Positions 60-56,480 of a DNA stretch of 64,000 nt are shown here, one piece after another. Made by a program: the position numbers and the translations under genes. The notes beneath the pieces were generated by a model, which saw nothing but the letters and a program-made list of their open reading frames with translations, had not been told where the DNA came from and did no database searches. Location: NCBI GenBank assembly GCA_963727485.1, contig CAVSGM010000001.1, positions 512,001 to 576,000 of the forward strand. Direction: 5' to 3'. This DNA is from an uncultured delta proteobacterium. Lineage in GTDB: Bacteria > Myxococcota > Myxococcia > SLRQ01. Each line of letters opens with the position of its first letter. Within the stretch, counting starts at the first letter, position 1.

Positions 60-1095
60 ATGCGCGACACCCTCCAGCTCAAGAGCCTCCCCGAGGCGGC
101 GGCGGTCGAGGCCCTCGGCGCCCTGGGGGCCACCGGCCGGGAGGCGCGGCGGATTCTGGTCGGCGGCGGTGAAGCGCCGGGCCACCGTGGACGAGATCGC
201 CCGCCTCGAGCAGGTGCGCCGCCCGGTCCTCGACGCGGTACTCCCCCGCCTCGACCTTCGCCGCCTCGAGGTCGTCACCCGGCGCACCGATCCCGCCGAC
301 GGCTTCGTGAAGTACCTGTTCGCCCTGGCGGACGGCCACCGGGTGGAGGCGGTGCGCATCCCCATCTTCGACACCCACCACGTGGTCTGCGTCTCCAGCC
401 AGGTGGGCTGCCCCCTCACCTGCGACTTCTGCGCCACCGGGCGCCTCGGCTACCGGCGGAACCTCACCCCCGGGGAGATCGTCGAGCAGGTGCTGGCCAT
501 CCGGGACGAGGCCGACCGCCCGGTGCGGGGGGTGGTGTTCATGGGCATGGGCGAGCCGATGCTCAACTACGACGGGGTGGTCGACGCCGCGCGGATCCTC
601 ACCGCCGGCGCCGGGGTCGCCATCGGGGGCAAGCGCATCACCGTCTCCACCGCCGGCTGGGTCCCGGCCATCCGCCGCTACACCGCAGACGGCCACCCCT
701 GGCGCCTGGCGGTGAGCCTGACCTCGGCGATCCCCGAGAAGCGGGTGCAGGTGATGCCCATCGAGGCCCGCTACCCGCTCCCCGAGCTCTGGGCCGCGAC
801 CCGGGACCACGCCCTCGCCCGGAAGACCCGGGCGATGCTCGCCTACGTCCTCATCCGCGGCTTCAACACCGGCCGCGAGGACGCCCTGGCCCTCAAGCGC
901 CTCGTGGGCGACACCCCGGTCATGGTCGACCTCATCGACGTCAACGACGCCACCGGCCGCTACCTCCCCCCGACCCCCGAGGAGCTGGAGCGCTTCCGCG
1001 ACCACCTCCAGGTCCTGGGGCAGCCGGTGGTGCGCCGCTACTCCGGGGGCAAGCAGGTGGAGGCCGCCTGCGGGATGCTGGCGGCCTCCGGCTGA
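60..1095 (+). CDS. RlmN/Cfr-family radical SAM RNA methyltransferase (apparent +1 frameshift at 152-156)
   Basis: VCVSSQVGCPLTCDFC (CxxxCxxC plus upstream Cys), FMGMGEP and C-terminal AACGML. ATG at 60 joins the catalytic frame if one T is removed from GATTC at 152-156. Confidence 0.85.
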
Positions 1096-1099
1096 CCGG

Positions 1100-3118
1100 C
1101 TAGAGGCAGCTCGGGTTGGCCCCGCATCCGCTGGCGGACATGGGCGCCACCGCGTCGCACTCGGCGACGTTGTGGAAGACGTTCATCGAGGTGAGGTCCA
1201 TGGGGAGGCCCGTCCAGCCCTCGACGATGCCGTTGCCCGCCGAGTCGGTGATGGACACGCTCGTGATCGAGCCGGCCGCCGGCATGGCGTCGAAGAAGGA
1301 GAGGCCGCCGTTCTCGTCGCCGCTGGTCGGCTCGCAGGCGTAGCCCGAGAAGCCGCCGTCGCCCCCGGCGAAGGAGATGCCCACGTTCTCCATCCGGCTC
1401 GGGGCCAAAGGCGAGGTGTTGTCGCCGTTGAAGATGACCCCGACCCAGTCTCCGGCGGCGCCGGTGGTGTCGGTCCAGCTCCCCATGGTGATGGGCTGGG
1501 TGGCCGTGCCCACCGCCTGGAGGGCCCCCTGGCCCAGACCGTGGACGTTGATGGTCAGCCGCTCCCCGGCGGAGAAGAGCAGGCTGACGCCCGGGTCCAG
1601 GGTGAGGGTCGCCGGCGCTCCGCTGGTGCTGCCCACCGTGAGGGAGCCGTAGAGCAGGTAGGGGGCGCCGAGGTCGGCGAGGGTGGTGTCCCGGGTGATG
1701 TCGCCGCCGGTGACCCAGATCCCCGGCTGGGCCCCGTCGACGGTGCTCGCCGAGGGCAGGCTGTAGAGGGCCTCGCCGCTGAGGACCAGGGGCACCGCCA
1801 CCGGGGTGCCGATATCGGGGCTCACGTCGGCGCCCGAGCCGGTGATGTGGAGGTCCGAGGCGCCGGGCATGAACGCCGCGCCGCCCTGGAGCAGGAGGCC
1901 CACGGTCCCCGAGTCGGTGATGCTCAGGTGGTCCACCGCGAGGCACTCGGCGGTGGGGCTGGCCGCCGCGCCGCCGTCGGCGAGGAGGCTGGTGCCGTCG
2001 CCACCCTCGGAGCCGGTGGCGCCGCCGCCGTCGACGTCGGTGTAGGACAGGGACATCGTCGCCGGGGCGGTGACCTTGAGGTCGTTCCAGCGGCCGCCGC
2101 CCGCGCCGGTGACGGTGACGTGCTTCGCCGCGGTGCCGGCGAAGACCAGGTGCCCCAGGGCCCCGCCGGCGCCTGCGGCCACGGTCATGTCGGCGCCCGC
2201 CGAGAGCTTCAGGGTCGCGCCGGCGGCGATGGTCACCGTGACGTCGCTGGTGGCGCTGTCCGAGGGGAGCACGGCGAAGTCGCCGCCGTCGTAGTTGTCG
2301 CCGAGGATCCAGGGGACACCCGGGTCGGAGAGGGTCTCGCTCTGGGCGATGCTGTCCCGGCCCTTGAGCAGGATCCCGTCGAGGCCGTTGCCGGTGTAGG
2401 TGCCGGACGGCAGGGAGCCGGCGCTCTCGGTGGACAGGCGCACCGGGTAGGCGGGAATCGGGCTCCCGCCGTCGGTCATGGGCTGCTGTCCGGTGCCGGT
2501 GACGGTCAGGGCGGTGGAGCCCGACATGAAGGCGGCCCCGTCGGCGAGGTTCACCCCCGAGGCGGCGGCGTCGGAGAGGGTCACGTGGTCGACCTTGAGG
2601 GTGGCCTTGGGTGCGGCGCTCCGGTCGCCGGTGACCGTCACCACCGCCGCGTCGGCGCTCGTGGCCTGACCGCCGTGGGTGAGGGTGGTGTAGGCGAGCT
2701 CGAGGGTGGCCGTGGGAGAGGTGGCGGTGAGGCCCTGCCAGTAGTCGGTCCCGCTGGGCCCGAAGGTGACCTTGCCGTCGGCGGTCCCCTCGGTGACGAG
2801 GTGGCCGGCGACCTTGATCCCGGCGCCGCTCCCGAGGACCACCGCGGTGCACTTGCCGAGGGTGAGGGTGGCGCCGCTTCCGACCTTCACCGTGTCACCG
2901 TCGGCGATGACGTAGGGCGAGTGGGCGGCGTCCCAGGTGGTGTCGGCGGAGAGGGTGCCGGTGACGGTGGTGGGCCCGCTGGTCTTGTTGCCGCAGGCGT
3001 CCTCGGCCTTGACGTTTCCGCCGCCACCGCCGCCGCCTCCCGAGGGGGTGCAGCCGGCGGCGAGGACGAGGACGAGGGACAACGTCAGGGTGCTTCGGGA
3101 AGCGATGCGCGAGCGCAT
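1100..3118 (-). CDS. Large secreted lipoprotein, probable parallel beta-helix repeat protein
   Basis: AGGAG RBS; lipobox LAAGC; Gly/Thr/Asp-rich with a thrice-recurring GTA..xxTxx..W.G module. Confidence 0.7.
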   Translation of the reverse strand: MRSRIASRSTLTLSLVLVLAAGCTPSGGGGGGGGNVKAEDACGNKTSGPTTVTGTLSADTTWDAAHSPYVIADGDTVKVGSGATLTLGKCTAVVLGSGAGIKVAGHLVTEGTADGKVTFGPSGTDYWQGLTATSPTATLELAYTTLTHGGQATSADAAVVTVTGDRSAAPKATLKVDHVTLSDAAASGVNLADGAAFMSGSTALTVTGTGQQPMTDGGSPIPAYPVRLSTESAGSLPSGTYTGNGLDGILLKGRDSIAQSETLSDPGVPWILGDNYDGGDFAVLPSDSATSDVTVTIAAGATLKLSAGADMTVAAGAGGALGHLVFAGTAAKHVTVTGAGGGRWNDLKVTAPATMSLSYTDVDGGGATGSEGGDGTSLLADGGAAASPTAECLAVDHLSITDSGTVGLLLQGGAAFMPGASDLHITGSGADVSPDIGTPVAVPLVLSGEALYSLPSASTVDGAQPGIWVTGGDITRDTTLADLGAPYLLYGSLTVGSTSGAPATLTLDPGVSLLFSAGERLTINVHGLGQGALQAVGTATQPITMGSWTDTTGAAGDWVGVIFNGDNTSPLAPSRMENVGISFAGGDGGFSGYACEPTSGDENGGLSFFDAMPAAGSITSVSITDSAGNGIVEGWTGLPMDLTSMNVFHNVAECDAVAPMSASGCGANPSCL

Positions 3119-3276
3119 GACGGCGACTCCTGTGAGTGGGTTCGAACCCGGTGGGTGTACCACGCTGGGGAAGACCGGCTGTGACCGCGATCGACCACCG
3201 GTTCGTCGCCCCTGGCGCGGGCCCTGGCCGCGATGGCGGGGCATCGCCTATGGTGGGCGGTCCGGGAGGAGTGCCC

Positions 3277-5467
3277 ATGCCGCATCGCCGCGTCGCCACC
3301 TTCGCCGTCCTCGTCACCGTCCTGCTGGCGCCAGGGTGTCACCACGACGACGGGGGGGCGCCCCGGACGCCGCCCACGCCGCGGCGGACCCGGGCGACGC
3401 CGGCCACCGGGACGCCGGCGACGTGGTCCTCGCCTCCCACCTCCCGGCGAGCGCCGACGCCAAGGGCGACCTCCCGGCCATCGAGAAGCGCGGGGTGCTC
3501 CGGGTCCTCATCCCCGGCACCCGCGAGACCTTCCTCCCCCGCCAGGGCATGCCGACCTCCTACGACCGCACCCTGGCCCGGGCCTTCGCCGCCCGCTTCC
3601 ACCTGAAGATCCGCTTCGTCCTGGTGCCCGACCACGCCCGGCTCCTGGCGGCCCTCGACGCCGGCAAGGGGGACCTGGTCGCCGCGCGCCTCGCCATCAC
3701 CCCGGCGCGCCAGAAGGTCGTGGACTTCACCCGGCCGGTGGCCTCGGTGGACGAGATGCTCGTCGACGCCAAGGACGATCCCCACCCGCCGAGGTCGCTG
3801 GCCGACCTGAAGGGCCGGGAGATCGACGTCCGGAAGAGCTCCTCGTACTACGAGACCCTCCAGGGCCTGAAGGTCCCCGGGCTCACGGTGAAGGCGGCGG
3901 ACGAGCGCCTCGACGCCGAGCAGCTCGCCTACCAGGTGGGCCGGCACCAGCGCCCGCTCACGGTGGTCGACAGTGACATCCTCGCCGCCATCGAGACCTA
4001 CGACGACGACGTGGTCGGCCGCTTCCCCATCGCCGAGGGCGACCACATCGCCTGGGCCCTCCGCAAGCACTCCCCGAAGCTCAAGGCCGCCCTCGACGCC
4101 TTCCTCATCGAGAAGGCGCTCACCGCCCACACCCGCCGGATTCTTCAAGGGCGACCTGAAGGGGATCCGCAAGCGCGGGGTCCTCCGGGTCCTCACCCGG
4201 AACAACCCGGTCACCTACTTCCTCTACCGGGGCAAGCAGCTGGGCTTCGACTTCGAGCTGGCCCGCCTCGCCGCCAAGGACCTGGGGGTGCGCCTGGAGA
4301 TGGTGGTGCCCCCGAGCCGGGACCAGCTCATCCCCTGGCTCCTGGCGGGCAAGGGCGACGTCATCGCCGCCTCGCTCACCGTGCTGCCCCGCCGGGCCCG
4401 GGAGGTGGCGTTCTCCAAGCCCTACCTCCACGTGGAGGAGATGCTCATGGGCAAGCAGGGGGGACCGGCGGTCAGCGCCCTCCCGGATCTCAAGGGCAAG
4501 ACGGTGGAGGTGCGCCGGTCCTCGAGCTACTGGACCACCCTCCTGGGCCTGGAGAAGAAGGTGGGGCCGTTCAAGATGGTGGCGGCCCCCGAGGACCAGG
4601 AGACCGAGGCGCTCATCGACCGGGTGGCGAAGGGGAAGATCCCCTTCACCGTCGCCGACAGCGACATCGCCCTGGTGGAGCTCACCTGGCGCGACGACGT
4701 CGCCGCCGAGCTCGCCCTCACCGATCCCAAGGGCAAGCCCGGCGCCTGGGAGGACCTCACCCAGGGGAGCAAGGCCATCGCCTTTGCGGTGCGGCCGGGA
4801 TTCGAAGCAGCTCCTCGCCTGGCTCGACGGCTTCGTGAAGCGCACCTACCGCGGGGTCGCCTACAACGTGGCCCGGAAGCGGTACTTCCACGACCGCAAG
4901 GCCATCGACCGGGTGAAGACCGGGCGGGTGGGCGCCGGGGGGCACCTCTCGCCCTACGACGGGCTCCTCAGGAAGTACGCGGCGCGCTACGGCCTCGACT
5001 GGCGGCTGATGGCCGCCACCGCCTTCCAGGAGAGCCGGTTCAACCCCCACGCCAAGAGCTGGGTGGGGGCCAAGGGGCTCTTCCAGGTGATGCCCCAGAC
5101 CGCCCACGCCCTGGGCTTCGACCACCCGGAGCGCCCGGCCCAGGGCGTCGCCGCCGGCGTCGAGTACATCCACCAGCTCATCGGCCGCATCGATCCCACC
5201 CTGCCGCTGCGGGTGCGGGTGCGGATGGCGCTCGCCGCCTACAACGCCGGCCTGGGGCACGTCCGGGACGCCCGGCGCCTCGCCGACCGGCTCCACCTCG
5301 ACCCCGACAAGTGGTTCGGCAACGTCTCCAAGGCCATGCTTCTCCTGGAGCAGCCCAGGTACTACCGTCACGCCCGCTACGGCTACTGTCGCGGCAGCGA
5401 GCCGGTTGCCTATGTTTCCCAAATCCAGAACCGCTACGACAACTACGTGAAGATCGTGAAGCAATAG
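3277..5467 (+). CDS. mltF: MltF-like lytic transglycosylase with two solute-binding (family 3) domains and a C-terminal SLT domain (three apparent frameshifts)
   Basis: Lipobox LAPGC; two GDL..I.KRGVLRVL SBP starts; SLT motifs QESRFNP, AKGLFQVMP, ALAAYNAG. Frame breaks at about 3352-3364 (G/C runs), 4139-4143 and 4799-4803. Confidence 0.85.
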
Positions 5468-5476
5468 GAGGCGGCG

Positions 5477-5782
5477 ATGTCGGTGACGAGGGTGGTGATG
5501 GTGAAGCTGAACGGTGAGCACCAGACCGAGGCCAGGCGCCTCGAGGTGGCGCGGCACAGCCTCGAGGCCCTGGGGAAGGTCCCCGGGATCGAGGGCGTGG
5601 AGGTGGGGGTGCCCGCGGACGCCGGGTCGGCGGCGGCCTGGGACCTGGAGATCCTGGTGCGCTTCGCCCGCGTCGAGGACATCGAGGCCTACCGGGTGGA
5701 CCCGGCCCACCGCGCCTACGTCGACGACTACCTCGAGCCGCGGATGGCGGTGATCAAGGCCTGGAACTTCGAGGCCGTCTAG
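5477..5782 (+). CDS. Dabb family (stress-responsive A/B barrel) protein
   Basis: RVVMVKL start, Y..DPAH..Y motif, 101 aa, GGAGG RBS. Confidence 0.8.
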   Translation: MSVTRVVMVKLNGEHQTEARRLEVARHSLEALGKVPGIEGVEVGVPADAGSAAAWDLEILVRFARVEDIEAYRVDPAHRAYVDDYLEPRMAVIKAWNFEAV

Positions 5783-5796
5783 AGAACGGAGCCTGC

Positions 5797-6723
5797 GTGA
5801 CCGACGTCGCCCTGCGCTGCGCCGGCCTGGTGAAGCGCTTCCCGGACGTCCTGGCGGTGGCGGGCCTCGATCTCGAGGTGCCCCGGGGGACGTGCTTCGG
5901 GCTCCTCGGCCCCAACGGCGCCGGGAAGACCACGACGGTGGAGATCTGCGAGGGGCTCCAGAAGGCCGACGCCGGCACGGTGGAGGTGCTGGGCCAGAGG
6001 TGGGGCGAGGGCGACGATCGGCGGATCCGGGCGCGGCTGGGGGTGGCGCTCCAGGACACCCAGCTCCCCGACCGGCTCACGGTGCGGGAGACGGTGCGCC
6101 TGTTCCGCAGCTTCTACCCCGCCGGCCGCGAGGTCGACGAGGCGCTGGCGCTCCTGGAGCTCGAGGAGAAGCGGGACGCCCGGGTGGGCAAGCTCTCCGG
6201 GGGCCAGCGGCAACGCCTGGCGCTGGCCTGCGCCCTGGTGGGCGACCCGGCGCTCCTGTTCCTCGACGAGCCCACCACCGGCCTCGACCCCCAGGTGCGC
6301 CTCCACATCTGGGAGATCGTCGAGCGCTTCCGGGCGGGCGGGGGCACGGTGATCCTCACCACCCACTACATGGAGGAGGCCGCCAGGCTCTGCGAGGCGG
6401 TGGCGGTCCTCGATCACGGGCAGGTCATCGCCCGGGGGTCGCCCGCCGAGCTGGTCGCCGGCCTCGAGGCCGAGCAGGTGGTGACCCTTCAGACCGAGCC
6501 GGCCCTGGACCCCGAGGCCCTGGCGGCCCTGCCCGGGGTGTCGTCGGCCACCGCCCGGGGCGAGGCGCGGGTGCTCCACGTCTCCGAGGTGGGCGTGGCC
6601 CTGCCGGCCATCACCGCCGAGGTGGCGCGCCTTGGCGCCCGGATCGTCAGCCTCACCACCCACGAGGCCACCCTCGAGGACGTGTTCGTGGACCTCACCG
6701 GCCGGGGGCTGCGCGATGCCTAG
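5797..6723 (+). CDS. ABC-2 type exporter ATP-binding protein
   Basis: Walker A GPNGAGKTT, LSGGQRQR, LFLDEPTTGLDP, TTHYMEEA. Confidence 0.95.
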   Translation: MTDVALRCAGLVKRFPDVLAVAGLDLEVPRGTCFGLLGPNGAGKTTTVEICEGLQKADAGTVEVLGQRWGEGDDRRIRARLGVALQDTQLPDRLTVRETVRLFRSFYPAGREVDEALALLELEEKRDARVGKLSGGQRQRLALACALVGDPALLFLDEPTTGLDPQVRLHIWEIVERFRAGGGTVILTTHYMEEAARLCEAVAVLDHGQVIARGSPAELVAGLEAEQVVTLQTEPALDPEALAALPGVSSATARGEARVLHVSEVGVALPAITAEVARLGARIVSLTTHEATLEDVFVDLTGRGLRDA

Positions 6724-7762
6724 GCCCGCCTCGGCGCTGATGGAGCTGACCCGGGCGCGGCTCCTGGAGTTCCTCCGGGACCCGGCGGCGGTGTTCTGGG
6801 TCTTCGGCTTCCCCATCCTCCTGGCGGTGGTCCTGGGGATCGCGTTTCGGAGCCGGCCGGCGCCCACCTACCCGGTGGCGGTGGTCGACGGGCACCCGGG
6901 GAGCGCCGCCCTGGCCACCGACCTCGCCACCTCCAAGGCCCTCAAGGTGCGGCGACTGGCCCCCGCCGCCGCCGACGCCGCGCTCCGCCGGGGGCAGGTG
7001 GCGGTGGTGGCGGTGCCCTGGCCGAGGGGCGAGGTGACCTGGCGCCTCGACCCCACCCGCGAGGACGGCCCGGTGGCCAGGCGCGTCGCCGACGACGCCC
7101 TCCAGCGCGCCCGGGGGCGAAAGGACGCGGTCCAGACCCGCACCGAGCCGGTGTCCGAGGCCGGGGGGCGCTACATCGACTTCCTGGTGCCCGGCCTCGT
7201 GGGCCTCAACCTCATGGGCTCGAGCATGTGGGGCGTGGGCTTCGCGGTGGTCGACACCCGCAAGCGCCGGCTCCTCAAGCGCTTCGCCGCCACCCCCATG
7301 CGCCGCTCCGACTTCCTCCTGGGCTTCATGCTCTCCAGGATGGCGTTCCTCGCCGCCGAGGTGGCGGTGCTCATCGCCTTTGGCTGGTGGGCCTTCGGGG
7401 TGGCGGTCCACGGGTCGATCTGGGCCCTGTCGCTGGTCTCGCTCCTCGGGGCCCTGACCTTCGCCGGCATGGCCGTCCTCATCGGCGCCCGCACCGACAG
7501 CACCGAGGTCGCCAGCGGCTGGGCCAACTTCGTGATGATGCCCATGTGGATGTTCTCGGGGGCGTTCTTCTCCTACGAGCGCTTCCCCGAGTTCCTCTGG
7601 CCGGCGCTCCGGGCCCTGCCGCTGACCGCCCTCAACGACGCCCTCCGGGCGATCATGAACGACGGCACCGCCGTCTGGCACCTCTGGCCCCAGATTCTGG
7701 TGCTCGCCGTCTGGGGCGTGCTGTCCTTTGCAGTGGCCCTGAAGATCTTCCGGTGGCAGTAG
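6716..7762 (+). CDS. ABC-2 type exporter permease
   Basis: Overlaps the ATPase stop; YIDFLVPG, LKRFAATP, PLT..NDALR; about 6 TM segments. Confidence 0.92.
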   Translation: MPRPASALMELTRARLLEFLRDPAAVFWVFGFPILLAVVLGIAFRSRPAPTYPVAVVDGHPGSAALATDLATSKALKVRRLAPAAADAALRRGQVAVVAVPWPRGEVTWRLDPTREDGPVARRVADDALQRARGRKDAVQTRTEPVSEAGGRYIDFLVPGLVGLNLMGSSMWGVGFAVVDTRKRRLLKRFAATPMRRSDFLLGFMLSRMAFLAAEVAVLIAFGWWAFGVAVHGSIWALSLVSLLGALTFAGMAVLIGARTDSTEVASGWANFVMMPMWMFSGAFFSYERFPEFLWPALRALPLTALNDALRAIMNDGTAVWHLWPQILVLAVWGVLSFAVALKIFRWQ

Positions 7763-7810
7763 ACCCGGGGGACCGTGATATACGCCCCTTTCAGCTTCCA
7801 GGAGGCCGAC

Positions 7811-10920: not shown

Positions 10921-10930
10921 GCCCGGGGCC

Positions 10931-13900: not shown

Positions 13901-14186
13901 AGAACCCGATGGGCGCCGCGTCGCCGCCGGTGAAGGTCAGCCGGCGGGCCTCGCCGCCCTCCCCGGGCATGACCCAGACCTCGGTCTGCCCCTCGTCGCG
14001 GCCGGCGTAGGCCAAAAGCGACCCGTCCGGCGAGAACCGGGGGCCCCCGCTCCGGCCGTTGGAGGCGGTGAGGCGCCGGGCGAGGCCGCCGTCGGCGGAC
14101 ACGGCGAAGAGGTCGTCCTCGGAGACGAAGACCACGGTGTCGTCGTGGATCGTGGGCGAGCGGTAGTAGCCGTCGGACTTGGACAT
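10931..14186 (-). CDS. Tricorn protease (S41 family), apparent frameshift near 11891
   Basis: Beta-propeller N-terminus, RWKRYRGG, GELGTSHAY (His), PDZ, GYLHIPDMG, AGSDGD (Ser), GKRTWGGVIGI. One extra base near 11891 splits it. Confidence 0.93.
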
Positions 14187-14255
14187 GGGGCACGGGGATA
14201 GCCCACGTGGCGTCCCAAAGAAAGGTGGGAGCAGGCGGGAGCCCGGCCCGGGGCC

Positions 14256-16414: not shown

Positions 16415-16506
16415 GAGGCCTCCTCCGCGCCAGTGTGCGCCAAGGTCCTCCCATATCACGGCCAGGGCGGCCCCGGTTCGAGGCCTACTGGTGTACCCTT
16501 GGGCCC

Positions 16507-17598: not shown

Positions 17599-17617
17599 GG
17601 CCGCCCGGCCTCTGCCC

Positions 17618-18085: not shown

Positions 18086-18213
18086 TGCGTCCTCCATGGG
18101 GGTAGTAGCCTAGAGGATCGCCAGATGACTGTCCAGTGAGCGACCTACTGGGGTACCCTTACGGGTGGGAGGCCCTGCATGGCGCATCGGATGTCGCAGG
18201 AGACTGGCCAGCG

Positions 18214-21570: not shown

Positions 21571-24415
21571 ATGGCCGACTCCCAAGTCATCGATTCTGAA
21601 GGCCCGCCTCGCCGCGGGTCAGGCCGCCGCCGACGATCCCCTCTCCGGCCTCTCCGCCGCCAACCGCGCCTGGATCGAGGACCTCTACGCCTCGTGGCTG
21701 GAGAGCCCCAGCAGCGTCTCCCGGAGCTGGGCCGAGCTCTTCGCGCAGCTCGGCGACGGGCTGGCCACCAGCGCCGAGGCCATCCGCGGCCCCGAGCCCG
21801 ACACCCGGTCCATCTTCGCCGCCGGCGCCCCCGAGCCCGTCACCGGCGACGCCGCGCACATCCGCAAGAACGCCTCGGTCCTCGACCTCATCACCGCCTA
21901 CCGGCGCAACGGCCACCTGGTGGCGACCCTCGATCCCCTGGGTCTCCACCAGCGCCCCCTGCCCCCGGAGCTCACCCTCCAGTACTGGGGGCTGACCGAG
22001 GACGACCTCGACACCGTCTTCGAGACCGGCCGCCTCGCCGGCCCGGCCCACGCCACCCTCCGGGACATCATCGACCGCTGCCAGGCCATCTACACCGGCA
22101 CCTTCGCCGCGGAGTTCATGTACATCCGCGACGAGGAGCGCCGCCGGTGGATCGAGCGGCGCATCGAGGAGAGCGGCGCCCGCATCGCCCTCGACCGCCC
22201 CACCGGGCTGCGGGTCCTGGACAAGCTCACCGCCGCCGACCACTTCGAGAGCTTCGTCCACACCAAGTACCTCGGGGCCAAGCGCTTCTCGGTGGAGGGC
22301 GCCGAGGCGCTGATCCCGCTCCTCGACCTCATGGTCTCCACCGCCGGCGACATGGGCGTCGGCGAGATCGTCATCGGCATGGCCCACCGGGGCCGCCTCA
22401 ACGTCCTCGCCAACCTCCTCGGCAAGGCGAGCCAGGACATCTTCGAGGAGTTCGAGGACCACTTCCCCCGCCCGGCGCAGATGGGCGGCGGCGACGTGAA
22501 GTACCACCTCGGCTACTCCTCGGACGTGGAGACCCCGGACGGCAAGAAGCTCCACCTCCGGCTGGCCTTCAACCCCAGCCACCTGGAGTTCGTGAACCCG
22601 GTGGTCGAGGGGATGGTCCGGGGCAAGCAGGACCACTTCGGCGACACCGCCCGCCACCGCACGGTGCCGGTCCTGATCCACGGTGACGCCGCGGTCATCG
22701 GCCAGGGGGTGGTCTCCGAGACCCTCAACCTCGCCGGGCTGCCGGGCTACGACGCCGGGGGCACCATCCACATCGTGGTGAACAACCAGATCGGGTTCAC
22801 CACCACCCCCGACGAGGGGCGGACCCCGGCCCACTGCACCGACGGGATGAAGGTCATCCTCCCCCCGGTCCTCCATGTCGACGCCGACGACTTCGGCGCC
22901 GTGGCCTTCGCGGCGCGCCTCGCCGCCGAGTACCGGCAGACCTTCCACAAGGACTTCGTCATCGATCTGGTGTGCTACCGGAAGTACGGGCACAACGAGG
23001 GTGACGAGCCGGCGTTCACCCAGCCCCTGATGTACCAGGCCATCCGCGCGCGGAAGACGCCGCTGAAGCGCTTCATCGACCGGTACACCGCCGAGGGCGT
23101 GCTCACCGACGACGACGTCGCCGACGCCGACGCCCGGGTGCGCACCCAGCTGGAGACGGCGCTGCGCCGGGCCCGGGCCAAGGACCGGGGGGCCAAGGAG
23201 CTCGCCGGCCTCTGGAAGGGCCTGCGCTCGGGCACCGACCCCACCGCGTCCGACTACCCCACCGAGGTGGAGGCGCCGGTGCTCCAGGAGATCGCCCGGC
23301 ACCTGGCCACGGCACCCGAGGGGATGGAGGTCCACCCCAAGGTCCAGCGCATCCTCGACTACCGGGCCGAGCTCGCCGAGGGCAAGGCCAGGGTCGACTG
23401 GTCCATGGGCGAGTCGCTGGCCTACGGCTCGCTCCTGCGCGAGGGGTACCCGGTGCGGCTGGCCGGCCAGGACTCCGGCCGCGGCACCTTCAGCCACCGC
23501 CACGCGGTCATCTACGACCAGAAGACCGGCGAGGCCTACCTCGCCCTCAAGCACCTCACCCGCTCCCAGGCCCAGATCGACGTGATCAACTCGCCGCTCT
23601 CCGAGGTGGCGGCGCTGGGCTTCGAGTACGGCTACACCTTGAGCCGCCCCGAGGCCCTGGTGATCTGGGAGGCGCAGTTCGGCGACTTCGCCAACGGGGC
23701 CCAGGTGATCATCGACCAGTTCATCTCCAGCTCCGAGGCCAAGTGGAACCGCCACACCGGCGTGGTCCTCTTCCTGCCCCACGGCTACGAGGGCATGGGC
23801 CCCGAGCACTCCTCGGCGCGCATCGAGCGCTTCCTCCAGCTCTCCGCCGAGGACAACTGGCGGGTCCTGAACCCCAGCACCCCGGCCCAGGTGTTCCATG
23901 CCCTGCGCAGCCAGCTCCACCGGAACTACCGCAAGCCCCTGGTGGTGTTCACGCCCAAGAGCCTGCTGCGGCTCGCCGACAGCTTCGCGGGCCTCGACGA
24001 GCTGGTGCACGGGTCGCTCAAGCCGGTCATCGACGACGCCGCCGCCGACCCCGAGACGGTCAAGCGGGTGGTGCTGTGCAGCGGCAAGGTCTACTACGAC
24101 CTGATGTCGCACCTGAAGGCGCACCCGGCGCCGGTGGCCGTGGTCCGGGTGGAGCAGCTCTACCCCTTCGACGCCGAGGAGGCCCAGGCGGTGATCCACC
24201 GCTACCCCCACGCGCGGGAGGTGGTGTGGTGCCAGGAGGAGCCCGCCAACATGGGCGCCTGGCTCCACCTCGAGCCGCTGTTGCGGCAGATCACCCAGCT
24301 GCCCATCCTCTACGCGGGGCGGGTCCGGGCGGCGAGCCCGGCGACGGGATCGAAGTTCCTCCACGACCAGGAGCAGGAAGCGCTGATCCGGTCGGCTACG
24401 AACATCCAGGGTTGA
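21571..24415 (+). CDS. sucA: 2-oxoglutarate dehydrogenase E1 (apparent frameshift at 21592-21596)
   Basis: GMAHRGRLN, GDVKYHLG, NPSHLE, HGDAA, WEAQFGDF, LPHGYEG. Removing one T from GATTC gives MADSQVIDLKARL from ATG 21571. Confidence 0.96.
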
Positions 24416-27299: not shown

Positions 27300-28196
27300 T
27301 CAGACCGGCGGCGTCGCCGGCGGCTGCCAGGGCAGGGCGTCCAAGGGCACCACCGTGGCCCCGACGGCCCCTGGCCCGCCGTGGAGATAGATGCTGGGCG
27401 AGAGCGGGCGCGAGTAGAGGAAGGCCACGTCGAAGCGCTCGCGGAGCTGGTCGGCGAGGCGCCGGGCCTTGTCCGGGGCGTTGCCGTGGAAGATGCCCGC
27501 CCACACCCGGCGCTGCCGCCCCCCGATCGCCGCCGCGAGGTACGCGGCGAGGCGGACGGCGGGGTCGGCGGAGGCCGGGATCTTGCCCGCGGCCTTGAGC
27601 TCGCCGTCGTCGAAGGCGATGAGCGGTCGGATTTGGAAGAGGTTGGCGATGAAGGCGCGCAGGGCCGTGGCCCGCCCGCCCTTCACCAGGTAGTCGAGGG
27701 TCTCCACGGCGAAGGCCGCGCGGCTGGCCTCGCGATAGGCCGCCAGGAGCTCGGCGATCCGCGGCAGCGGCACCCCCGCGCGATCGGCCTCTCCGGCGAG
27801 GATCGTCGCCAGGCCCGCGCCGACGTCGGTGGTGCCGGTGTCGGCGACGGCGATCGCCACGTCGGCGTAGGACGCCTGATCGCCCAGGATCCGCGCCGCG
27901 GCCACGGCGGCGTCGTGGGATTGGATGAGCTTGCGGGAGGTCATCACCGCGAGGATTTGGCGATCCGTGGCGGCCAGGTCGCGGAACATCCCGGCGTACT
28001 CCGCCGCCGAGGTGCCGAGCACGTACGGGTGCTCCTGGGCGGTGCGCACCCAGGCGTCGATGGTCTCGAGGGCGACCCCGTCCCGGGTGTCGTGCTCGAC
28101 CCCGTCCACGACGATCTTCTGGGGGGTGAGGGCCACCCCGTAGCGGGCGACGATCTCGGGGGACAGGTTCGAGCCGGGGTTGGTGAGGATGCGCAC
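27300..28196 (-). CDS. DegV family fatty-acid-binding protein
   Basis: RILT start, TL.YLVKGGR, I.PLI...DGEL, I.LHGGPGAVG. Confidence 0.85.
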   Translation of the reverse strand: MRILTNPGSNLSPEIVARYGVALTPQKIVVDGVEHDTRDGVALETIDAWVRTAQEHPYVLGTSAAEYAGMFRDLAATDRQILAVMTSRKLIQSHDAAVAAARILGDQASYADVAIAVADTGTTDVGAGLATILAGEADRAGVPLPRIAELLAAYREASRAAFAVETLDYLVKGGRATALRAFIANLFQIRPLIAFDDGELKAAGKIPASADPAVRLAAYLAAAIGGRQRRVWAGIFHGNAPDKARRLADQLRERFDVAFLYSRPLSPSIYLHGGPGAVGATVVPLDALPWQPPATPPV

Positions 28197-28374: not shown

Positions 28375-29755
28375 ATGTCCCCGTCCCCGCCGCCGCGTGC
28401 GACCTCGGCCCGACGCCGGCGCCCGTCCCTGGGCCCGATCTCCCCGGAGACCGCCGCCGCCGCGGTACGCGATCGCCGAGGGGCGGTCCGCTGGGGCCTG
28501 CTCCTGATCCCCGCCCTCTACCCCCTCGACGCATTCTTCGCCGGCCACGCCATCCCCGGGGCCTTCGTGGTGCGGGCGCTCTGGGCGGGCATCTTCCTCC
28601 TCGGCCTGAGGCGCCAGAGCCGCGACGGCCACGACGGGGACGGGCGCTGGGTCACGGTCTACGCCATCGCCAGCGCCACCGCGATCTTCACCCTCGCCAC
28701 CCTCACCGGCGGCAAGGACAGCTACCTCTTCCCCTGGACCTTCGCCCTCCCGGTGATCTTCGGCGCGGTGAACCCGGACCGGCGCCAGGCGGTGGTCGGC
28801 TCCGCGGCGATCCTCGCCCTCGGCGGCGCGGCCATCCTCTCCCAGACCACCCACCCCGAGGTGAGCATCACCCTCTACGTCGCCCAGCTCGCGGTGGTCA
28901 CCGGCCTGGCGCTGGTGGCCCAGTCGCAGTTCTCGAGGCTGGTGGCGCGGGAGCTCTCCGCCGCCGGCGAGCGCGAGGCGGCCCTGGCCGCCCTGGTCGA
29001 GAGCGAGAGCCGGCGTGCCCGCACCGAGCGCCTGGCGACCCTGGGGCAGCTCGCCGCCGGGGTGGCCCACGAAATCAACAACCCCCTGGCCTACCTCAAG
29101 GCCAACCTCGGCTACGTCCGCGAGGTGAGCCTTCAGCGGCTCCCTCCCGCGGATTCGGGAGGACGTCGCCGAGGTTCTCGACGAGAGCCGGGCGGGGCTC
29201 GACCGGATCGCCGAGATCGTCGGCGCCCTCCGGCTCTACGCCCGGGACGACGACGAGACGCCCAATGGCGACGTCTCCGGCGCCATCGCCGAGGCCGCGC
29301 AGCTCGCCTCGGTGCGGCTCCGGGGCGTGGCCGAGCTCGACACCGAGGTGGCGGCGGGCCTCCCGGCGGTCCCCATGGCCCAGGGCCGCCTCGCCCAGGT
29401 GCTCGTCAACCTCCTCCTCAACGCTGCCGACGCCGTCGTCGACCGGCCCGGCGCCGGCCGGGTGTCCCTGCGCGCCGAGGCGGTGGGGGGCGGCGAGCGG
29501 ATGCGCATCGCCGTCGAGGACGACGGCGTGGGCCTCACCCCCGATGTGAAGGCGCGCCTCTTCCGCCCCTTCTTCACCACCAAGCCCCCGGGGAAGGGCA
29601 CCGGCCTCGGCCTCGCCCTCGCCGAGGAGATGGTCACCCGCGCCGGGGGCACCATCGCCGCCGGGGACCGTCCCGGTGGCCCCGGGGCCCGCTTCGTGGT
29701 GGAGCTCCCGGCGGTGCCTCAGGCCCGGAGCAGCGGGAGCAGCTCGGCGGCGTAG
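28375..29755 (+). CDS. Membrane sensor histidine kinase, orphan (apparent frameshift at 29152-29156)
   Basis: About 6 TMs; LGQLAAGVAHEINNPL; QVLVNLLLNA, DDGVG, FFTTK, GTGLGL. Confidence 0.9.
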
Positions 29756-32067: not shown

Positions 32068-32070
32068 CTC

Positions 32071-33257: not shown

Positions 33258-34765
33258 CCGAGCGCATCCTCACCGACGAAGCGGACTTCGTGGTCGTGGG
33301 CACCGGCGCCGGCGGCGCCACCGCCGCAAGGATCCTCGCCGGCGCCGGCCACGAGGTGGTCCTCCTCGAGGAGGGCCGCCGGCTCGCCATGGGCGAGCAG
33401 CCCCGGGAGCTCATCCACGCCATGCGCCACGCCTTCCGCGACGGGGGCACGGCGGTGGCGAGGGGCCCCACGCCCTTCCCCATCCTCCAGGGCCGGGTGG
33501 TCGGCGGCTCCACCGCCATCAACTCCGGGATCATCTGGCGGCTCCCCGAGCCGGTGCGCCAGGACTGGATCGCGCAGCGTGGCCTCGGCGACCTCCTCGA
33601 CGAGGCGGGCCTCGACGACGCCTTCTCGCGGATCGAGGCCGAGCTGAACATCGCCGACACCGCCGAGGACGTCATGGGCGGCAACGCCAAGGTCCTGCGC
33701 GACGGGGCCACCGCCCTGGGCTTTGCGGGCAAGGCCACCGCGCGCAACGCCCCGGGGTGCAAGGGCGCCGGCCGCTGCCTCCAGGGCTGCCCCAACCGCG
33801 CCAAGCAGAGCATGGACGTCAGCTACATCCCCCGGGCCCTGGCCGACGGGGCGCGGCTCCACCAGCTCGCCCGGGTCGACCGGGTGCGGATGGAGGGCGG
33901 CCGGGCCGTGGGCGTCGTCGGCGCCGTCCTCGACCCCGACACCCGCCGCCCGGTGGGCCGCCTCGAGGTCCGCGCCCGGCGCGGGGTCATCGTCGCCGCC
34001 GGGGCCATCCACACCCCGGCGATCCTCCGCCGCAGCGGCGTGAAGGGGCTCGCCGGCGAGCACTTCATGGCCCACCCGGGCACGGCGGTGGTCGCCCGCT
34101 TCCCCGGCTCCATCGGCATGGGCCACGGCGCCACCCAGGGCTACCAGGTGGTCTTCTTCGAGAAGCACCTCAAGATCGAGTCGCTCACCCTGCCTCCCGA
34201 GATGCTCGCCGCGCGGCTGCCCGGCGCGGGCGTCGCCTGGCAGCAGCGGCTCACCGACCTCGACCACTACGCCCAGTGGGCGGTGATGGTGCGCATGGAG
34301 GCCAAGGGCCGCATCCGCCCGCGCTTCGGCGGGGTCGACGTGGCCTACGCCCCGACGCCCCGCGACGCCGAGACCGCCCGCCAGGGGGTCGTCCTCGCGA
34401 CCCGGATGATGTTCGCCGCCGGGGCCGTCGAGGTCTACCCCTGGATTGGCCGGCGCCCGCCCATCCTCCGCTCCATGGACGAGGTGCGCCTCCTCGAGGA
34501 GGGCGAGGTGGCGCCCCGGGACTTCCACCTCCTGGGCACCCACCTCTTCGCCTCGGCCGGCGCCGGCGCCGACCCGAAGACCAGCGTGGTGGACCCGAAC
34601 CTCGAGGTCCACGGCACCCGGGGCCTCTTCGTCATGGACGCCAGCGCCCTGCCCACGAACATTGGCGTGAACCCCCAGCACTCGATCATGGGCGTGGTGT
34701 GGCGCGCCGCCGAGCGCCTCGCCAACCGCGAGGCCCCGGCCGCCCCCGCCAGCGCCGCCGCCTAG
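33254..34765 (+). CDS. GMC family FAD oxidoreductase (long-chain alcohol oxidase-like)
   Basis: VVVGTGAGG, VGGSTAINSG, CKGAGRCLQGC, AAGAIHTP, GVNPQ. Confidence 0.92.
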   Translation: MTERILTDEADFVVVGTGAGGATAARILAGAGHEVVLLEEGRRLAMGEQPRELIHAMRHAFRDGGTAVARGPTPFPILQGRVVGGSTAINSGIIWRLPEPVRQDWIAQRGLGDLLDEAGLDDAFSRIEAELNIADTAEDVMGGNAKVLRDGATALGFAGKATARNAPGCKGAGRCLQGCPNRAKQSMDVSYIPRALADGARLHQLARVDRVRMEGGRAVGVVGAVLDPDTRRPVGRLEVRARRGVIVAAGAIHTPAILRRSGVKGLAGEHFMAHPGTAVVARFPGSIGMGHGATQGYQVVFFEKHLKIESLTLPPEMLAARLPGAGVAWQQRLTDLDHYAQWAVMVRMEAKGRIRPRFGGVDVAYAPTPRDAETARQGVVLATRMMFAAGAVEVYPWIGRRPPILRSMDEVRLLEEGEVAPRDFHLLGTHLFASAGAGADPKTSVVDPNLEVHGTRGLFVMDASALPTNIGVNPQHSIMGVVWRAAERLANREAPAAPASAAA

Positions 34766-48749: not shown

Positions 48750-49969
48750 TGCGGCGGCGCCCGGTCCTCGAGGCGCTCCTCGCGTCCCTCGTCGTCGCCC
48801 TCGGCGCCGGCTGCGGGCACGGCACCGCGGCGGGCGGCGCCGACGGGGGCGGCGTGTCCCGGGATGCGGGCGGCGGGGGCACCGGTTCCGACGGCGGCAC
48901 CGGCGACGGAGGTGCGACGGACGGCGGCCCCACCGACGGCGGCGCGGCCGACGCCGGACCCTGGGTCCACTTCGTCTCCCCGGCCCCGGGCGCCACCGTC
49001 CCCAACCCGGTGACCTTCACCGTCGCCGCCGGCCAGGTCGACCAGGTGCAGATCCTCGCCGACGGCACCTGGGCGCTCGCGCCCGCCTGGGATCCCACGA
49101 CCACGGGCACGCTGCGCTACCGCTTCGCGAACACCGGCACCCGGCACGTCCAGGTCAACGGCCTGGTCGCCGGCCAGGTGGTCGTCACCGAGCCCCTGAC
49201 CCTCACCATCCCCCCCGACCCCTGCGCCGACCGGTTCTTCCTCGACCGCTTCGACGCCCAGAACCAGGACCCCTCGGGCACCGTGGATTTGGCCTCGCTC
49301 CGGGAAGACGCCCTGGCCGCGGTGAAGCAGGCCATCGCCGACCTGCGCGCCTGCGGGGCCACGGTCACCGACGGGGGGATGATGTCGCTGCTCTACTACG
49401 AGGGCGCCCTGCGCCTGGGCGCCTACAACACCCGGTGCAGCGAGAACAGCTACGACCCCATGCCGTCCGGGTGCGACGCCTACCCCGAGGCCCTCTACAG
49501 CTACCAGTACGGCCTCGGCGCCATCCACACCTCGAACTTCCACCCCTGCAAGGGCGGGAGCTGGACGGCGGGGATGCGCGCGCTCTTCCTCAAGCTCGCC
49601 GCCGACCACGGCTACGACACCCGCGCCTCGCTCATGACCCCGGCGCTGACCGACCGCTTCCACCAGGTGTGCCCGAACGCCACCCCCACGGCGGTCGACT
49701 ACTACCTCCTCGCCGCCCACGACGTCTTCGGGATCCCCAGGAACGGCGCCGGGAACGACCTGGCGGCGGTGGGCAGCTTCCCCTTCGTGGACCCGGCGAT
49801 CTCGGTGGCGCTCACCTTCCACGCCCTCACCGCCAGCTGCGCCTCGATCCACTCGGACCGCGACGCCATCACCGCCTTCGGGGGCGGGGACGCCAGCTAC
49901 GCCGACCCGGCGAAGCAGGACCAGATCCTGTCGTACTACCAGGACTACGCCGCGGCGCACTGCCCCTGA
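48749..49969 (+). CDS. Lipoprotein: DGG linker, Ig-like domain and unknown C-terminal domain
   Basis: Lipobox GAGC; V.FVSP..GATV.NPV Ig-like start; Cys-containing C-terminal domain. Confidence 0.75.
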   Translation: MRRRPVLEALLASLVVALGAGCGHGTAAGGADGGGVSRDAGGGGTGSDGGTGDGGATDGGPTDGGAADAGPWVHFVSPAPGATVPNPVTFTVAAGQVDQVQILADGTWALAPAWDPTTTGTLRYRFANTGTRHVQVNGLVAGQVVVTEPLTLTIPPDPCADRFFLDRFDAQNQDPSGTVDLASLREDALAAVKQAIADLRACGATVTDGGMMSLLYYEGALRLGAYNTRCSENSYDPMPSGCDAYPEALYSYQYGLGAIHTSNFHPCKGGSWTAGMRALFLKLAADHGYDTRASLMTPALTDRFHQVCPNATPTAVDYYLLAAHDVFGIPRNGAGNDLAAVGSFPFVDPAISVALTFHALTASCASIHSDRDAITAFGGGDASYADPAKQDQILSYYQDYAAAHCP

Positions 49970-53745: not shown

Positions 53746-55164
53746 ATGTCTGAACGCTACTTCCAGGACGCCTTCGGCATCACCGACGAGGTCATTCGTC
53801 GGGTCCTCGCCGCTGCCCTCTCGCGCGGCGGGGACTTTGCCGACCTCTACTTCCAGCACGGCATCGCCACCAGCCTCGCCCTCGAGGACGGGAAGGTCGA
53901 CCGCGCCGCCACCTCGGTGGACCTCGGCGTGGGCATCCGGGTGGTGGTCGGCGACCAGACCGGCTACGCCTTCACCGAGGACCTCGCCGAGCCGGCGATG
54001 ATCGCCGCGGCGAAGACGGCGGCGGGCATCGCCGCCTCCGGCGCCGCGGTGGCCCCCGTGGACCTCACCCCCCGGTCGCTCCCCCGCTACTACGACACCG
54101 CCTACGACTGGGGCGGCGTCGGCGCCCCGGAGGTGATGCCGCTCCTCGACCGGGTGAGCGAGGCCATCTGGAAGGGCGACGGGGTGGTCCGGGTGCAGGC
54201 GAGCTTCGCCGCCGGCCAGCACCAGGTGATGGTGGTCGACTCCGAGGGCCACGTCTCCACCGACTCCCAGCCCATGACCCGGATCTTCGCCTCCTGCGTG
54301 ATGGAGCGCGGAGGCGAGCGCCAGAGCGGGAGCCACAACCTCGCCGCCCGGGACGGCCTCGGCTTCTACACCGACGCCCGCCTCGATCACCTGGTCTCGA
54401 CCGCCCTCGACCGCACGGCGATCCTCTTCGAGTCCAAGCGACCGCCCCAGGGCGAGATGCCGGTGGTGCTCGCCGCCGGCTCCTCGGGGATCCTGCTTCA
54501 CGAGGCCATCGGCCACGGGATGGAGGCCGACTTCAACCGCAAGGGCGTCTCCATCTTCTCCGACAAGATCGGCAAGCCGGTGGCCGCGCCCTTCGTGACC
54601 ATCGTCGACGACGGCACCAACCCCAATGCCCGCGGGGCCATCAACGTCGACGACGAGGGCCAGGACAGCCAGCGCACGGTGCTGGTGGAAGAGGGCACCA
54701 TGCGCTCCTACCTCCACGACCGGATCAGCGCCAGGCACTACGGCGTGGCGCCCACGGGCAACGGCCGGCGCCAGAGCTTCCGCCACGCGCCGCTGCCCCG
54801 GATGCGCAGCACCTACATGATGCCCGGGCCCCACACCAAGGACGAGATCATCAAGAGCGTGAAGAAGGGCATCTATGCGGTCTCCTTCACCAACGGGCAG
54901 GTGAACATCGGCGCCGGCGACTACGCCTTCTACGTGAAGAACGGCTGGCTCATCGAGGACGGGAAGATCACCGCGCCCATCAAGGACGTGAACCTCATCG
55001 GCAACGGCCCCGAGTCCCTCTCGCGGATCTCCATGGTCGCCGACGACTTCGAGCTCGACGAGAGCGGCTGGACCTGCGGCAAGGACGGGCAGTCGGTGCC
55101 CGTGTCGCTGGGGCTGCCCACGGTCCTGGTGGACCGCATCGTGGTGGGAGGACAGCAGGGATGA
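53746..55164 (+). CDS. tldD: TldD metalloprotease
   Basis: FADLYF, G.GIRVV.G, LLHEAIGHGMEAD, DDEG, PRM, CGKDGQSVPV. Confidence 0.95.
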   Translation: MSERYFQDAFGITDEVIRRVLAAALSRGGDFADLYFQHGIATSLALEDGKVDRAATSVDLGVGIRVVVGDQTGYAFTEDLAEPAMIAAAKTAAGIAASGAAVAPVDLTPRSLPRYYDTAYDWGGVGAPEVMPLLDRVSEAIWKGDGVVRVQASFAAGQHQVMVVDSEGHVSTDSQPMTRIFASCVMERGGERQSGSHNLAARDGLGFYTDARLDHLVSTALDRTAILFESKRPPQGEMPVVLAAGSSGILLHEAIGHGMEADFNRKGVSIFSDKIGKPVAAPFVTIVDDGTNPNARGAINVDDEGQDSQRTVLVEEGTMRSYLHDRISARHYGVAPTGNGRRQSFRHAPLPRMRSTYMMPGPHTKDEIIKSVKKGIYAVSFTNGQVNIGAGDYAFYVKNGWLIEDGKITAPIKDVNLIGNGPESLSRISMVADDFELDESGWTCGKDGQSVPVSLGLPTVLVDRIVVGGQQG

Positions 55165-56480
55165 GCCAGGACCTCATGGATCTCGCCGAGCGCACGCTCG
55201 CGCAGGCGCAGCAGAAGGGCGCGCAGGACGCCGCGGTCTCCGCCAGCCGGGGCCGCTCCATCAGCGTGCAGTACCGCGACGGGGAGCTGGAGCAGGTGCG
55301 CGAGTCGGCGTCGGCGCAGCTCGGCGTGAGCCTCTACGTCGACGGACGCTACTCGACCCACTCCACCAACGACCTGCGCCCCGAGGCGGTCGACGCCTTC
55401 CTCGATCGCGCGGTGGCCCTCACCCGGCTGCTGGCCGAGGACCCCAACCGCGGCCTCGCCGACCCGGCCCTCTACGCCGGGCGCAGTGAGGCCGACCTGG
55501 GCATCCGCGATCCCGCCTGGGAGTCCCTGGACACCGAGGCCCGGAAGCGCCTCGCCGAGGAGGCCATGGCCGGGGCCCGGGCCGTCGAGGGGCCGATCCT
55601 CTCGGTGACCGCGGGGATGAGCGACGGCATCGGCGAGTCGGTGCGCCTCCACTCCAACGGCTTCAGCGGCCGGCGCGAGGGGACGCGCTTCGGCCTCGGG
55701 GTCGAGGTCTCGGTGAAGGACGAGGGCGACCGCCGCCCCGAGGAGTGGGACGCCGCCAGCACCCGGCGCCAGGACGCCCTCCCCAATCCCGCCACCGTCG
55801 GTCGCCGGGCCGCCGAGCGGGCCATGGCGCGCCTCGGCCAGCGCAAGCTCCCCAGCGGCACCTTCCCCCTGGTCGTCGATCCCCGCGCCGGGTCCACGCT
55901 GCTGCGCCACTTCCTCGCCGGCCTCGGGGGCGCGGTGCTCCACCAGCGCCGCAGCTTCCTCCTCGACCGCCTCGGCGACACCGTGGGCACCGAGGCCTTC
56001 CACCTGGTCGACGACCCGCTCCTGGTCGGCGGGCTGGCCTCCCAGCACTACGACGGCGACGGCATCGCCGCCCGGCCGCGGACCCTGGTCGACCACGGGA
56101 AGCTCGCCGGCTACCTCGTCGACGTCTACTACGGGCGCAAGCTCGGGGTGACGCCCGAGGGCGGCGGGACCACCAACCTCACCGTCGCCCCGGGGGCCAA
56201 GAGCCAGGCGGAGATCATCGCCGACATGTCCCGGGGGATCCTGGTCACCGGCTTCCTCGGGGGGAACGCCGACGTGGCCACCGGCGACTTCTCCCACGGC
56301 ATCGTGGGCTTCGTCATCGCCGACGGGAAGCTCGCCGGCCCCATCGGGGAGATGAACGTCACCGGCAGCCACCGGGCGCTGTGGAACCAGCTCCGGGAGA
56401 CCGGCAACAATCCCTACCCCTGGTCGAGCTGGCGCCTGCCGACGATGGTGTTCACCGACGTCGACGTCTCCGGCGCCTGA
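55161..56480 (+). CDS. pmbA: PmbA/TldE protein
   Basis: ATGA overlap with tldD; SFL, DDP, DGDG, TGDFS; no HExxxH. Confidence 0.92.
   Translation: MSQDLMDLAERTLAQAQQKGAQDAAVSASRGRSISVQYRDGELEQVRESASAQLGVSLYVDGRYSTHSTNDLRPEAVDAFLDRAVALTRLLAEDPNRGLADPALYAGRSEADLGIRDPAWESLDTEARKRLAEEAMAGARAVEGPILSVTAGMSDGIGESVRLHSNGFSGRREGTRFGLGVEVSVKDEGDRRPEEWDAASTRRQDALPNPATVGRRAAERAMARLGQRKLPSGTFPLVVDPRAGSTLLRHFLAGLGGAVLHQRRSFLLDRLGDTVGTEAFHLVDDPLLVGGLASQHYDGDGIAARPRTLVDHGKLAGYLVDVYYGRKLGVTPEGGGTTNLTVAPGAKSQAEIIADMSRGILVTGFLGGNADVATGDFSHGIVGFVIADGKLAGPIGEMNVTGSHRALWNQLRETGNNPYPWSSWRLPTMVFTDVDVSGA

Follow-up and report, generated by a model that had tools for sequence, protein, structure and literature searches.

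In the assembled genome of an uncultivated bacterium (G000; 5.55 Mb in 14 contigs, 73% G+C), genes are repeatedly interrupted by frameshifts at the word GATTC. Five of these frameshifts lie in the window, i.e. the whole stretch of 64,000 nucleotides that was analysed (positions 512001-576000 of contig C1), where they affect an rlmN-like gene, mltF (twice), sucA and a histidine kinase gene. It is concluded with moderate confidence that they are one-base insertions introduced by the assembly at sites whose true word is GATC, and that methylation of GATC, with N6-methyladenine (6mA) as the predicted mark, is the likely cause. The components of this conclusion can be graded separately. The GATC anomalies are almost certainly an artefact, a modification of the DNA is very probably responsible for the errors, and the mark, given a modification, is quite probably 6mA.

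Surplus bases in intact genes

G+C makes up 97.5% of third codon positions in 983 long open reading frames (ORFs) of G000, so that the reading frame is legible from composition alone. In the frame-switch test, the frame that fitted best over 120 bases to the left of a site was compared with the best-fitting one over 120 bases to the right. GATTC is present at 152, 4139, 4799, 21592 and 29152, as the preliminary description of the window had stated, and the test revealed a +1 switch at 152, 4139, 4799 and 29152. Site 21592 is beyond the reach of the test, as it lies only 7 codons into sucA and the start is too near. Deletion in silico of one T opened the reading frame across all five sites; in rlmN, at the two mltF sites and in the kinase, the T-deleted readings could be aligned with relatives in a single frame. 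At the 152 site the repaired reading is EARRIW, compared with EARRIY and EARKLW in relatives, and a Radical_SAM domain (Pfam) follows downstream. A tblastn search with the MltF proteins of three relatives passed from frame 3 to 1 to 2, with breaks at 4141-4163 and 4794-4796, and the Pfam domains SBP_bac_3, SBP_bac_3 and SLT occupy three successive frames of mltF. Downstream of 21592 lie four SucA domains (Pfam); a scan of genome contigs with SucA gave hits from many phyla at 43-51% identity, without a clear taxonomic placement. With the T deleted, the sequence around 29152 could be aligned through the site with paralogous kinases from relatives, HATPase_c being located in the downstream frame.

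Support for these repairs was obtained from independent DNA. Parts of the first 10 kb of the window are present in 17 public metagenome runs, and Logan contigs from four runs (X1-X4, four studies) were compared with the window over 1-20000 and 21000-35000. An exact search of a metagenome contig collection with a 30-base word of the window had no match; near-identical records may be missing from that collection. At all four frameshift sites covered (154, 4141, 4800 and 21594) one base was left out in every covering run. Base 154 was absent in X1 and X4 contigs, base 4141 in X1 (one contig) and X3 (two contigs), and base 21594 in X1 and X3. In X4, T is replaced by C at 21594 and 21595 is omitted, which yields GACC and a synonymous Asp-Leu (GAC-C versus GAT-CTG). 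Base 4800 was absent in one X3 contig, in which the omitted base was assigned to A; deletion of either A or T results in the same RPGS, which is matched in relatives (L009/L020; e.g., AFAVRPGSKQL versus AFAMRPGSPRL). This contig repairs the frame, while GATC as the true word at 4800 is not proven. Together with the alignments that run straight across the sites, the contigs uphold the earlier view that the genes are really intact.

A sixth surplus base, which the earlier list of frameshifts lacked, is situated at 11892 outside any GATC; thus, not every frameshift is found at GATC.

Insertions at GATC throughout the genome

In G000 as a whole, a +1 switch was found at 157 of 789 testable GATTC words and at 161 of 808 testable GAATC words (318/1597, 19.9%), compared with 2.2-7.6% for 22 control words, among them GACTC and GAGTC. 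Subtraction of the background leaves about 250 GATC insertion events genome-wide. The clustering of errors at GATC that the preliminary description had proposed from five sites is therefore real, and the type of artefact is one linked to modified bases in the accessible text of a study of nanopore assemblies (PMC11610603). Among the 220 GATTC/GAATC words that have a +1 switch no more than 20 bases away, 119 sit exactly at the change point and in 124 the next base is T. Expressed per 1000 GATCN words, the rate is 13.8 for T, 5.0 for G, 3.3 for C and 1.4 for A, such that the preferred insertion converts GATCT to GATTCT, which is the same as AGATC to AGAATC on the other strand. Of the same 220 words, 116 have GATTC on the coding strand and 104 have it on the template strand. 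This symmetry argues against any mechanism acting on the sense strand and rules out programmed frameshifting.

Other sequence-specific causes were rejected. A CcrM-type GANTC specificity would extend to the other GANTC words, yet GACTC (64/2050) and GAGTC (62/2072) remain at background (about 3%), and the contigs identify GATC as the true word. A recognition site longer than GATC (AGATCT, RGATCY or CGATCG) does not fit since all flanks are affected. Homopolymer errors are not the main cause: frame switches are not over-represented at runs of 3-7 bases, with a few only at G8-9 and C9. At window position 3351, where seven G follow one another, an additional G is present in one X1 contig (depth 3.2 of 16.1) and reflects either a difference in homopolymer length between strains or an error.

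GATTC is not enriched at -1/+2 switches genome-wide. The words GATTT, ATTTC and TTTCC are enriched there five- to eight-fold. Some -1/+2 switches are located at GATTTC (e.g., C2:432538 and C11:314559), a word that resembles GATC with two surplus T. When only strong switches were considered (gain >40, both sides coding), GATTC/GAATC accounted for 73 out of 253 events of the +1 type and 2 out of 85 of the -1 type. GATC thus covers roughly a third of the strong +1 events and not all of them, as the other 180 lie outside GATTC/GAATC.

Substitutions and rare codons at GATC

The preliminary description had suspected that rare codons in GATT and AATC are misread GATC words and had called for a genome-wide count of GATT, AATC and GATTC; the count revealed an enrichment at GATC. 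It comprised the 635,263 codons with an unambiguous frame. With hyphens marking codon boundaries, G-ATT-G occurs 122 times versus 2601 for G-ATC-G (4.7%), whereas C-ATT-G amounts to 10/7980 (0.13%). CAA-ATC occurs 32 times versus 757 for CAG-ATC (4.2%), compared with an overall CAA/CAG ratio of 0.54%. C-AAT-C (118/2651) exceeds G-AAT-C (14/1803), and GAT-TTG (5/121) exceeds GAC-TTG (3/1745). By contrast, GAA-ATC is not enriched; with 5 cases versus 1913 for GAG-ATC it falls under the overall GAA/GAG ratio of 0.0081. The enrichment of the affected classes ranges from 8 times for CAA-ATC to 36 times, with G-ATT-G at the top, and every enriched class can be written as GATCG to GATTG or GATCTG to GATTTG, on either strand and in any 5' context. 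In genome G003 of the same family (400 kb, third-position G+C 0.949), G-ATT-G was 0/347 and CAA-ATC 0/69; in the first 400 kb of G000, G-ATT-G was 7/172.

The residues encoded at such sites were compared with those of three relatives by blastp against ORFs selected by third-position G+C (189 best-hit pairs, taken as orthologues without a reciprocal check; 73,725 aligned codons). The 17 C-AAT-C codons, which nominally specify Asn, faced D in 7 cases, E in 3, S in 2, N in 1 and other residues in four. AAC codons (n=1378) faced N in 62% and D in 7%, and GAT-C codons faced D in 63% and E in 13%. Since C-AAT-C faces mostly D or E, such Asn codons stand on Asp positions. Genuine deamination of 5-methylcytosine (5mC), which had been offered as a source of the substitutions, seems unlikely because the changed codons fall on conserved Asp positions of the relatives and because G003 lacks the bias.

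Applied to the individual codons of the window, the suspicion was justified in part. At 27630, the difference in an X2 contig makes a GATC read as GATT probable. PmbA has GNNP in the window where GNDP had been expected, and all three solved homologues that reach the site (1vpb, 5nj5 and 3tv9) have GND; on this comparison of sequences, a GATC read as AATC, with Asp appearing as Asn, is probable. The codons at 27954, 34444 and 49286 belong to enriched classes. Three other codons do not follow the pattern. The in-frame GATTC at 7693 is a real allele: an X2 contig (7650-7861) has no differences and an X3 contig (7581-7875) differs in one other letter, taken to be the C>G listed for X3 at 7609. The codon at 5422 is confirmed by a contig, and that at 29073 belongs to the class that is not enriched. 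Counting only substitution sites covered by independent contigs, one of three differs from the window.

Predicted adenine methylases encoded in the genome

The preliminary description had assigned the modification to the C of GATC and had proposed a search for a GATC cytosine methyltransferase or dnd genes. No match to the C5-methylase family PF00145 was obtained in G000, whose completeness is 93%, while the control search matched in 9 of 14 known genomes. DndC (TIGR03183) likewise had no match in G000; in the 14 control genomes it matched in 4, none above the cut-off, so that the control does not demonstrate the ability of the search to detect a genuine DndC. An MT-A70 search had no match in G000 nor in the controls and is uninformative. 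MutH (PF02976) was not found in G000 nor in any of four family relatives.

The methylases that were found point to adenine. DPPY and DPPF in motif IV mark adenine methylases, whereas SPPY and SPPF mark N4-cytosine methylases. The three enzymes inspected carry DPPY, DPPY and DPPF, and none has SPPY/F. The single PF02086 match in G000 (38.6-40.7 bits) is a D12-class methylase with FAGTG and DPPY motifs. Its gene is unique to G000 among 31 genomes searched and shows host-like codon usage. It is flanked by genes for a PilZ protein and an AMP-binding enzyme, with a GntR regulator also nearby, and no restriction partner is encoded among the neighbouring genes. A 413-residue ORF upstream of it is not the coding frame. 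The second enzyme is a beta-class, CcrM-like methylase without the C-terminal part of CcrM. It is kept in all 31 genomes of the class with 57-80% identity and is, judged by its sequence, a putative class-wide orphan adenine methylase. The third, L003, also of PF01555, continues after about residue 270 in nonsense rich in Arg, Gly and Pro and is probably frameshifted or read beyond its true end. Judging from these motifs, adenine methylation is a guess, but a better-supported one than cytosine methylation.

Abundance of GATC in the family

Per 400 kb, GATC occurs 3593 times in G003, 2804 times in G002 and 2127 times in G000, compared with about 960 expected from base composition alone and only 137 in G024, a complete genome of 9 Mb, so that the density of GATC varies about 15- to 26-fold within one class. 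G024 uses G-ATT instead (20 versus 7 G-ATC-G). The GAT/GAC ratio in G000 is 0.11-0.12 before C and 0.003-0.015 before A, G or T; before C it reaches 0.41 in G003 (C16:1-400000). The preference for the Asp codon that creates GATC hints at selection for GATC words in a family without canonical Dam and MutH.

Table 1. Sites and genes considered in this study. Positions without a contig refer to the window; the others refer to contigs of G000.
Feature	Position	Strand	Observation
GATTC in radical-SAM (RlmN-like) gene	152..156	+	Surplus T in true GATC; +1 switch, gain 32.8
GATTC in mltF between two SBP_bac_3 domains	4139..4143	+	Surplus T; frame 3 to 1, gain 57.1
GATTC in mltF ahead of SLT domain	4799..4803	+	One surplus base; frame 1 to 2, gain 39.3
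GATTC in sucA, 7 codons in	21592..21596	+	Surplus T severs ATG at 21571 from the gene
GATTC in HisKA region of histidine kinase gene	29152..29156	+	+1 frameshift, gain 39.1; outside independent-contig coverage
Non-GATC surplus base, GCAC-G-CCGAGG	11892		Absent in X1 and X4 contigs; +1 switch at 11891
GATT (coding CAA-ATC)	27630..27633	-	C for T at 27633 in a single X2 contig, with a further difference at 27744
AATC in pmbA (AAC AAT CCC, GNNP)	56409..56412	+	GND in 3/3 solved homologues; probable GATC
GATT (CAA-ATC)	27954..27957	-	Enriched class; X1 contig spans the site with one unlisted difference
GATT (G-ATT-G)	34444..34447	+	Member of the most enriched class
GATT (GAT-TTG)	49286..49289	+	Class membership (5/121 versus 3/1745)
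In-frame GATTC (CAG ATT CTG)	7693..7697	+	Real allele; no frame switch
AATC (CAA-ATC) in mltF	5422..5425	+	X2 contig 4994-5484 with 0 differences and 0 gaps; one run only
AATC (GAA-ATC) in kinase H-box	29073..29076	+	Class not enriched; no reason for doubt
Orphan D12-class methylase	G000:C3:327773-328849		PF02086
Beta-class CcrM-like methylase (L002/L095)	G000:C1:13406-14293		PF01555, DPPY; 197.6 bits to CcrM 6pbd, the nearest solved relative
Second PF01555 methylase (L003)	G000:C1:1011350-1012006		DPPF; PF01555 match at C1:1011413; Arg/Gly/Pro-rich nonsense after about residue 270
PF02384 match with PF07669	C2:1075743
PF07669 match	C2:949659

Origin of the errors

A sequence of events can be proposed that would account for both kinds of error. 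The assembly would derive from long reads of the nanopore type that were not effectively polished with short reads; such an origin is suggested by the near absence of homopolymer frameshifts, as published for R10.4.1 data. A modification on GATC would distort the signal to an extent that depends on the neighbouring bases, and the consensus would go wrong where reads of the affected strand dominate. One class of errors consists of insertions (GATCT to GATTCT) and the other of substitutions (GATC to GATT or AATC, mostly GATCG to GATTG, equivalent to CGATC to CAATC). The substitutions give rise to rare Ile, Gln and Leu codons and to false Asp-to-Asn changes. The predicted mark is 6mA, which would be made by one of the DPPY-type adenine methylases of G000, with the D12-class enzyme as the first candidate.

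Several observations weigh against this proposal. No canonical Dam is encoded: the D12-class protein scores 18.2 bits on TIGR00571, where the cut-off is 114.85, and by sequence it has no relative in the PDB. Given this score, the missing structural relative and the lack of MutH, no enzyme can be assigned to GATC. Moreover, a D12-class gene is absent from G002 and G003, relatives that are also rich in GATC, and 7% of the G000 genome is missing from the assembly. The library type of X1-X4 is not on record; their contig depths are 2.3-5.7 and one of the runs is possibly the window's own sample. At 5422, a site of an enriched class, X2 agrees with the window. A-to-G changes are not in excess at GATC (G-GTC faces Ile in 11.5% and C-GTC in 10.8%). 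Neither Ile-to-Val (A-to-G) nor Ile-to-Thr (T-to-C) exchanges are in excess; GATC changes to GATT or AATC only. Neither PMC11610603 nor a recent preprint (10.64898/2026.01.14.699587) describes, in the accessible text, the insertion of one base at GATC.

An unmodified genome would suffice if basecaller or polisher were simply biased at GATCT and GATCG in a very GC-rich context. The strong dependence of the error rate on neighbouring bases is in keeping with such a bias, as are the small share of GATC words affected (roughly 1-5%), the lack of a methylase assignable to GATC, and insertions outside the motif, such as that at 11892 and the 180 strong +1 events. Arguing against this possibility is the tracing of C2T/G2A error-prone sites to modification by comparison of native with amplified controls, given in the accessible text of PMC11610603. 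In addition, G003, with 3593 GATC per 400 kb, lacks the signature (5/113 versus 43/2320 for controls, and no G-ATT-G among 347), although its platform may be a different one. Context bias alone is therefore considered unlikely.

A second alternative, that of the preliminary description, places the modification on the cytosine of GATC as N4-methylcytosine (4mC), 5mC or another mark, the basecaller reading C as T or inserting T before C. The errors can indeed be written as C-to-T and as T inserted beside C. The accessible text of PMC11610603 records a 5mC GATC motif in S. aureus, where reads were less accurate at the G and C bases; G000 has no canonical Dam or MutH, and the unassembled 7% of the genome also leaves room for a cytosine mark. 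GATC is a palindrome, however, so that a C-to-T change or an inserted T on one strand is a G-to-A change or an A inserted beside the adenine on the other, and the consensus does not tell which base is modified. For 6mA GATC, the accessible text of PMC11610603 documents the very same C2T/G2A signature. The absence of PF00145 and DndC matches and the DPPY/DPPF motifs of the PF01555 enzymes also speak against cytosine, a modification of which is quite unlikely and can no longer be upheld as the conclusion from these errors.

A broader variant, in which GATC is marked otherwise than by Dam-type 6mA, i.e. by a cytosine or backbone mark made by an enzyme outside the searched families, would fit a genome in which canonical Dam, MutH, C5 methylase and DndC were not found, and also the excess of GATC in this family, which is two- to nearly four-fold. 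This variant is regarded as distinctly improbable; if true, the mark would be a different modification, made by an enzyme that the searched families do not detect.

That the GATTC and GATT alleles are real, i.e. pseudogenes and in vivo mutations such as those caused by 5mC deamination, applies to individual words like 7693 and 5422, which match independent contigs, but as a general explanation it is hardly tenable in view of about 250 frameshifts, housekeeping genes (sucA, mltF, rlmN) included, in a 93% complete genome, the absence of the surplus base in other runs at every covered frameshift site, the symmetry of the sites with respect to the coding strand, the Asn codons on conserved Asp positions, and the impossibility of inserting a base by deamination.

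One further observation concerns the coverage of the window by the metagenome contigs. Between 5337 and 6670 their summed depth is 20-80 times that of neighbouring bins in all four runs (328 in X1), which probably reflects conserved sequence common to many organisms in the metagenomes.

Consequences and comparison with known systems

The public assembly contains roughly 250 false frameshifts and, by extrapolation from the third of the genome whose frame is certain, between several hundred and about a thousand false substitutions at GATC. Counts of pseudogenes, gene calls and conclusions about single residues are consequently unreliable at GATC, in this genome and in similar metagenome-assembled genomes obtained from long reads. 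The errors are predictable (GATTCT/AGAATC, GATTG/CAATC and GATTTG/CAAATC) and could be flagged or corrected without new data. For the biology of an uncultivated bacterium, the signature is an indirect hint of GATC modification; it reveals no new kind of mark. The phenomenon is a known artefact, and its insertion form extends the published record slightly at most. A literature search, judged from titles and the opening parts of abstracts, found no paper describing a single-base insertion at GATC.

With the Dam/MutH system of E. coli, G000 has the word GATC in common and a D12-class methylase with FxGxG and DPPY motifs. It differs in that this protein lies far under the Dam family cut-off and in that MutH was found neither in G000 nor in the four family relatives.

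The accessible text of the preprint reports that, on one platform, insertions were commoner in native reads than in amplified controls (bioRxiv 10.64898/2026.01.14.699587). G2A belongs to the substitution classes that methylation amplifies there, as in G000; A2G is amplified as well, unlike in G000, where A-to-G shows no excess at GATC. Indels were left out of variant calling in that work.

The closest parallel is provided by nanopore assemblies of bacteria, as far as the accessible text of their description goes (PMC11610603, Genome Res 2024). In R10.4.1-only assemblies, C2T and G2A were the dominant errors at modification sites; they arose from DNA modification, were visible on one strand only and survived long-read polishing. 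In indels these assemblies equalled short-read-polished ones, which parallels the near absence of homopolymer frameshifts in G000. The most visible error in G000 differs from those described in that text in being a one-base insertion (GATCT to GATTCT), in some cases a double one (GATTTC). GATC was an enriched error motif in E. faecium and K. pneumoniae, in the latter as G6mATC, and it is the enriched motif in G000 too. The substitution signature of G000 is thus the one described in the accessible text of that study, where the cases include adenine methylation.

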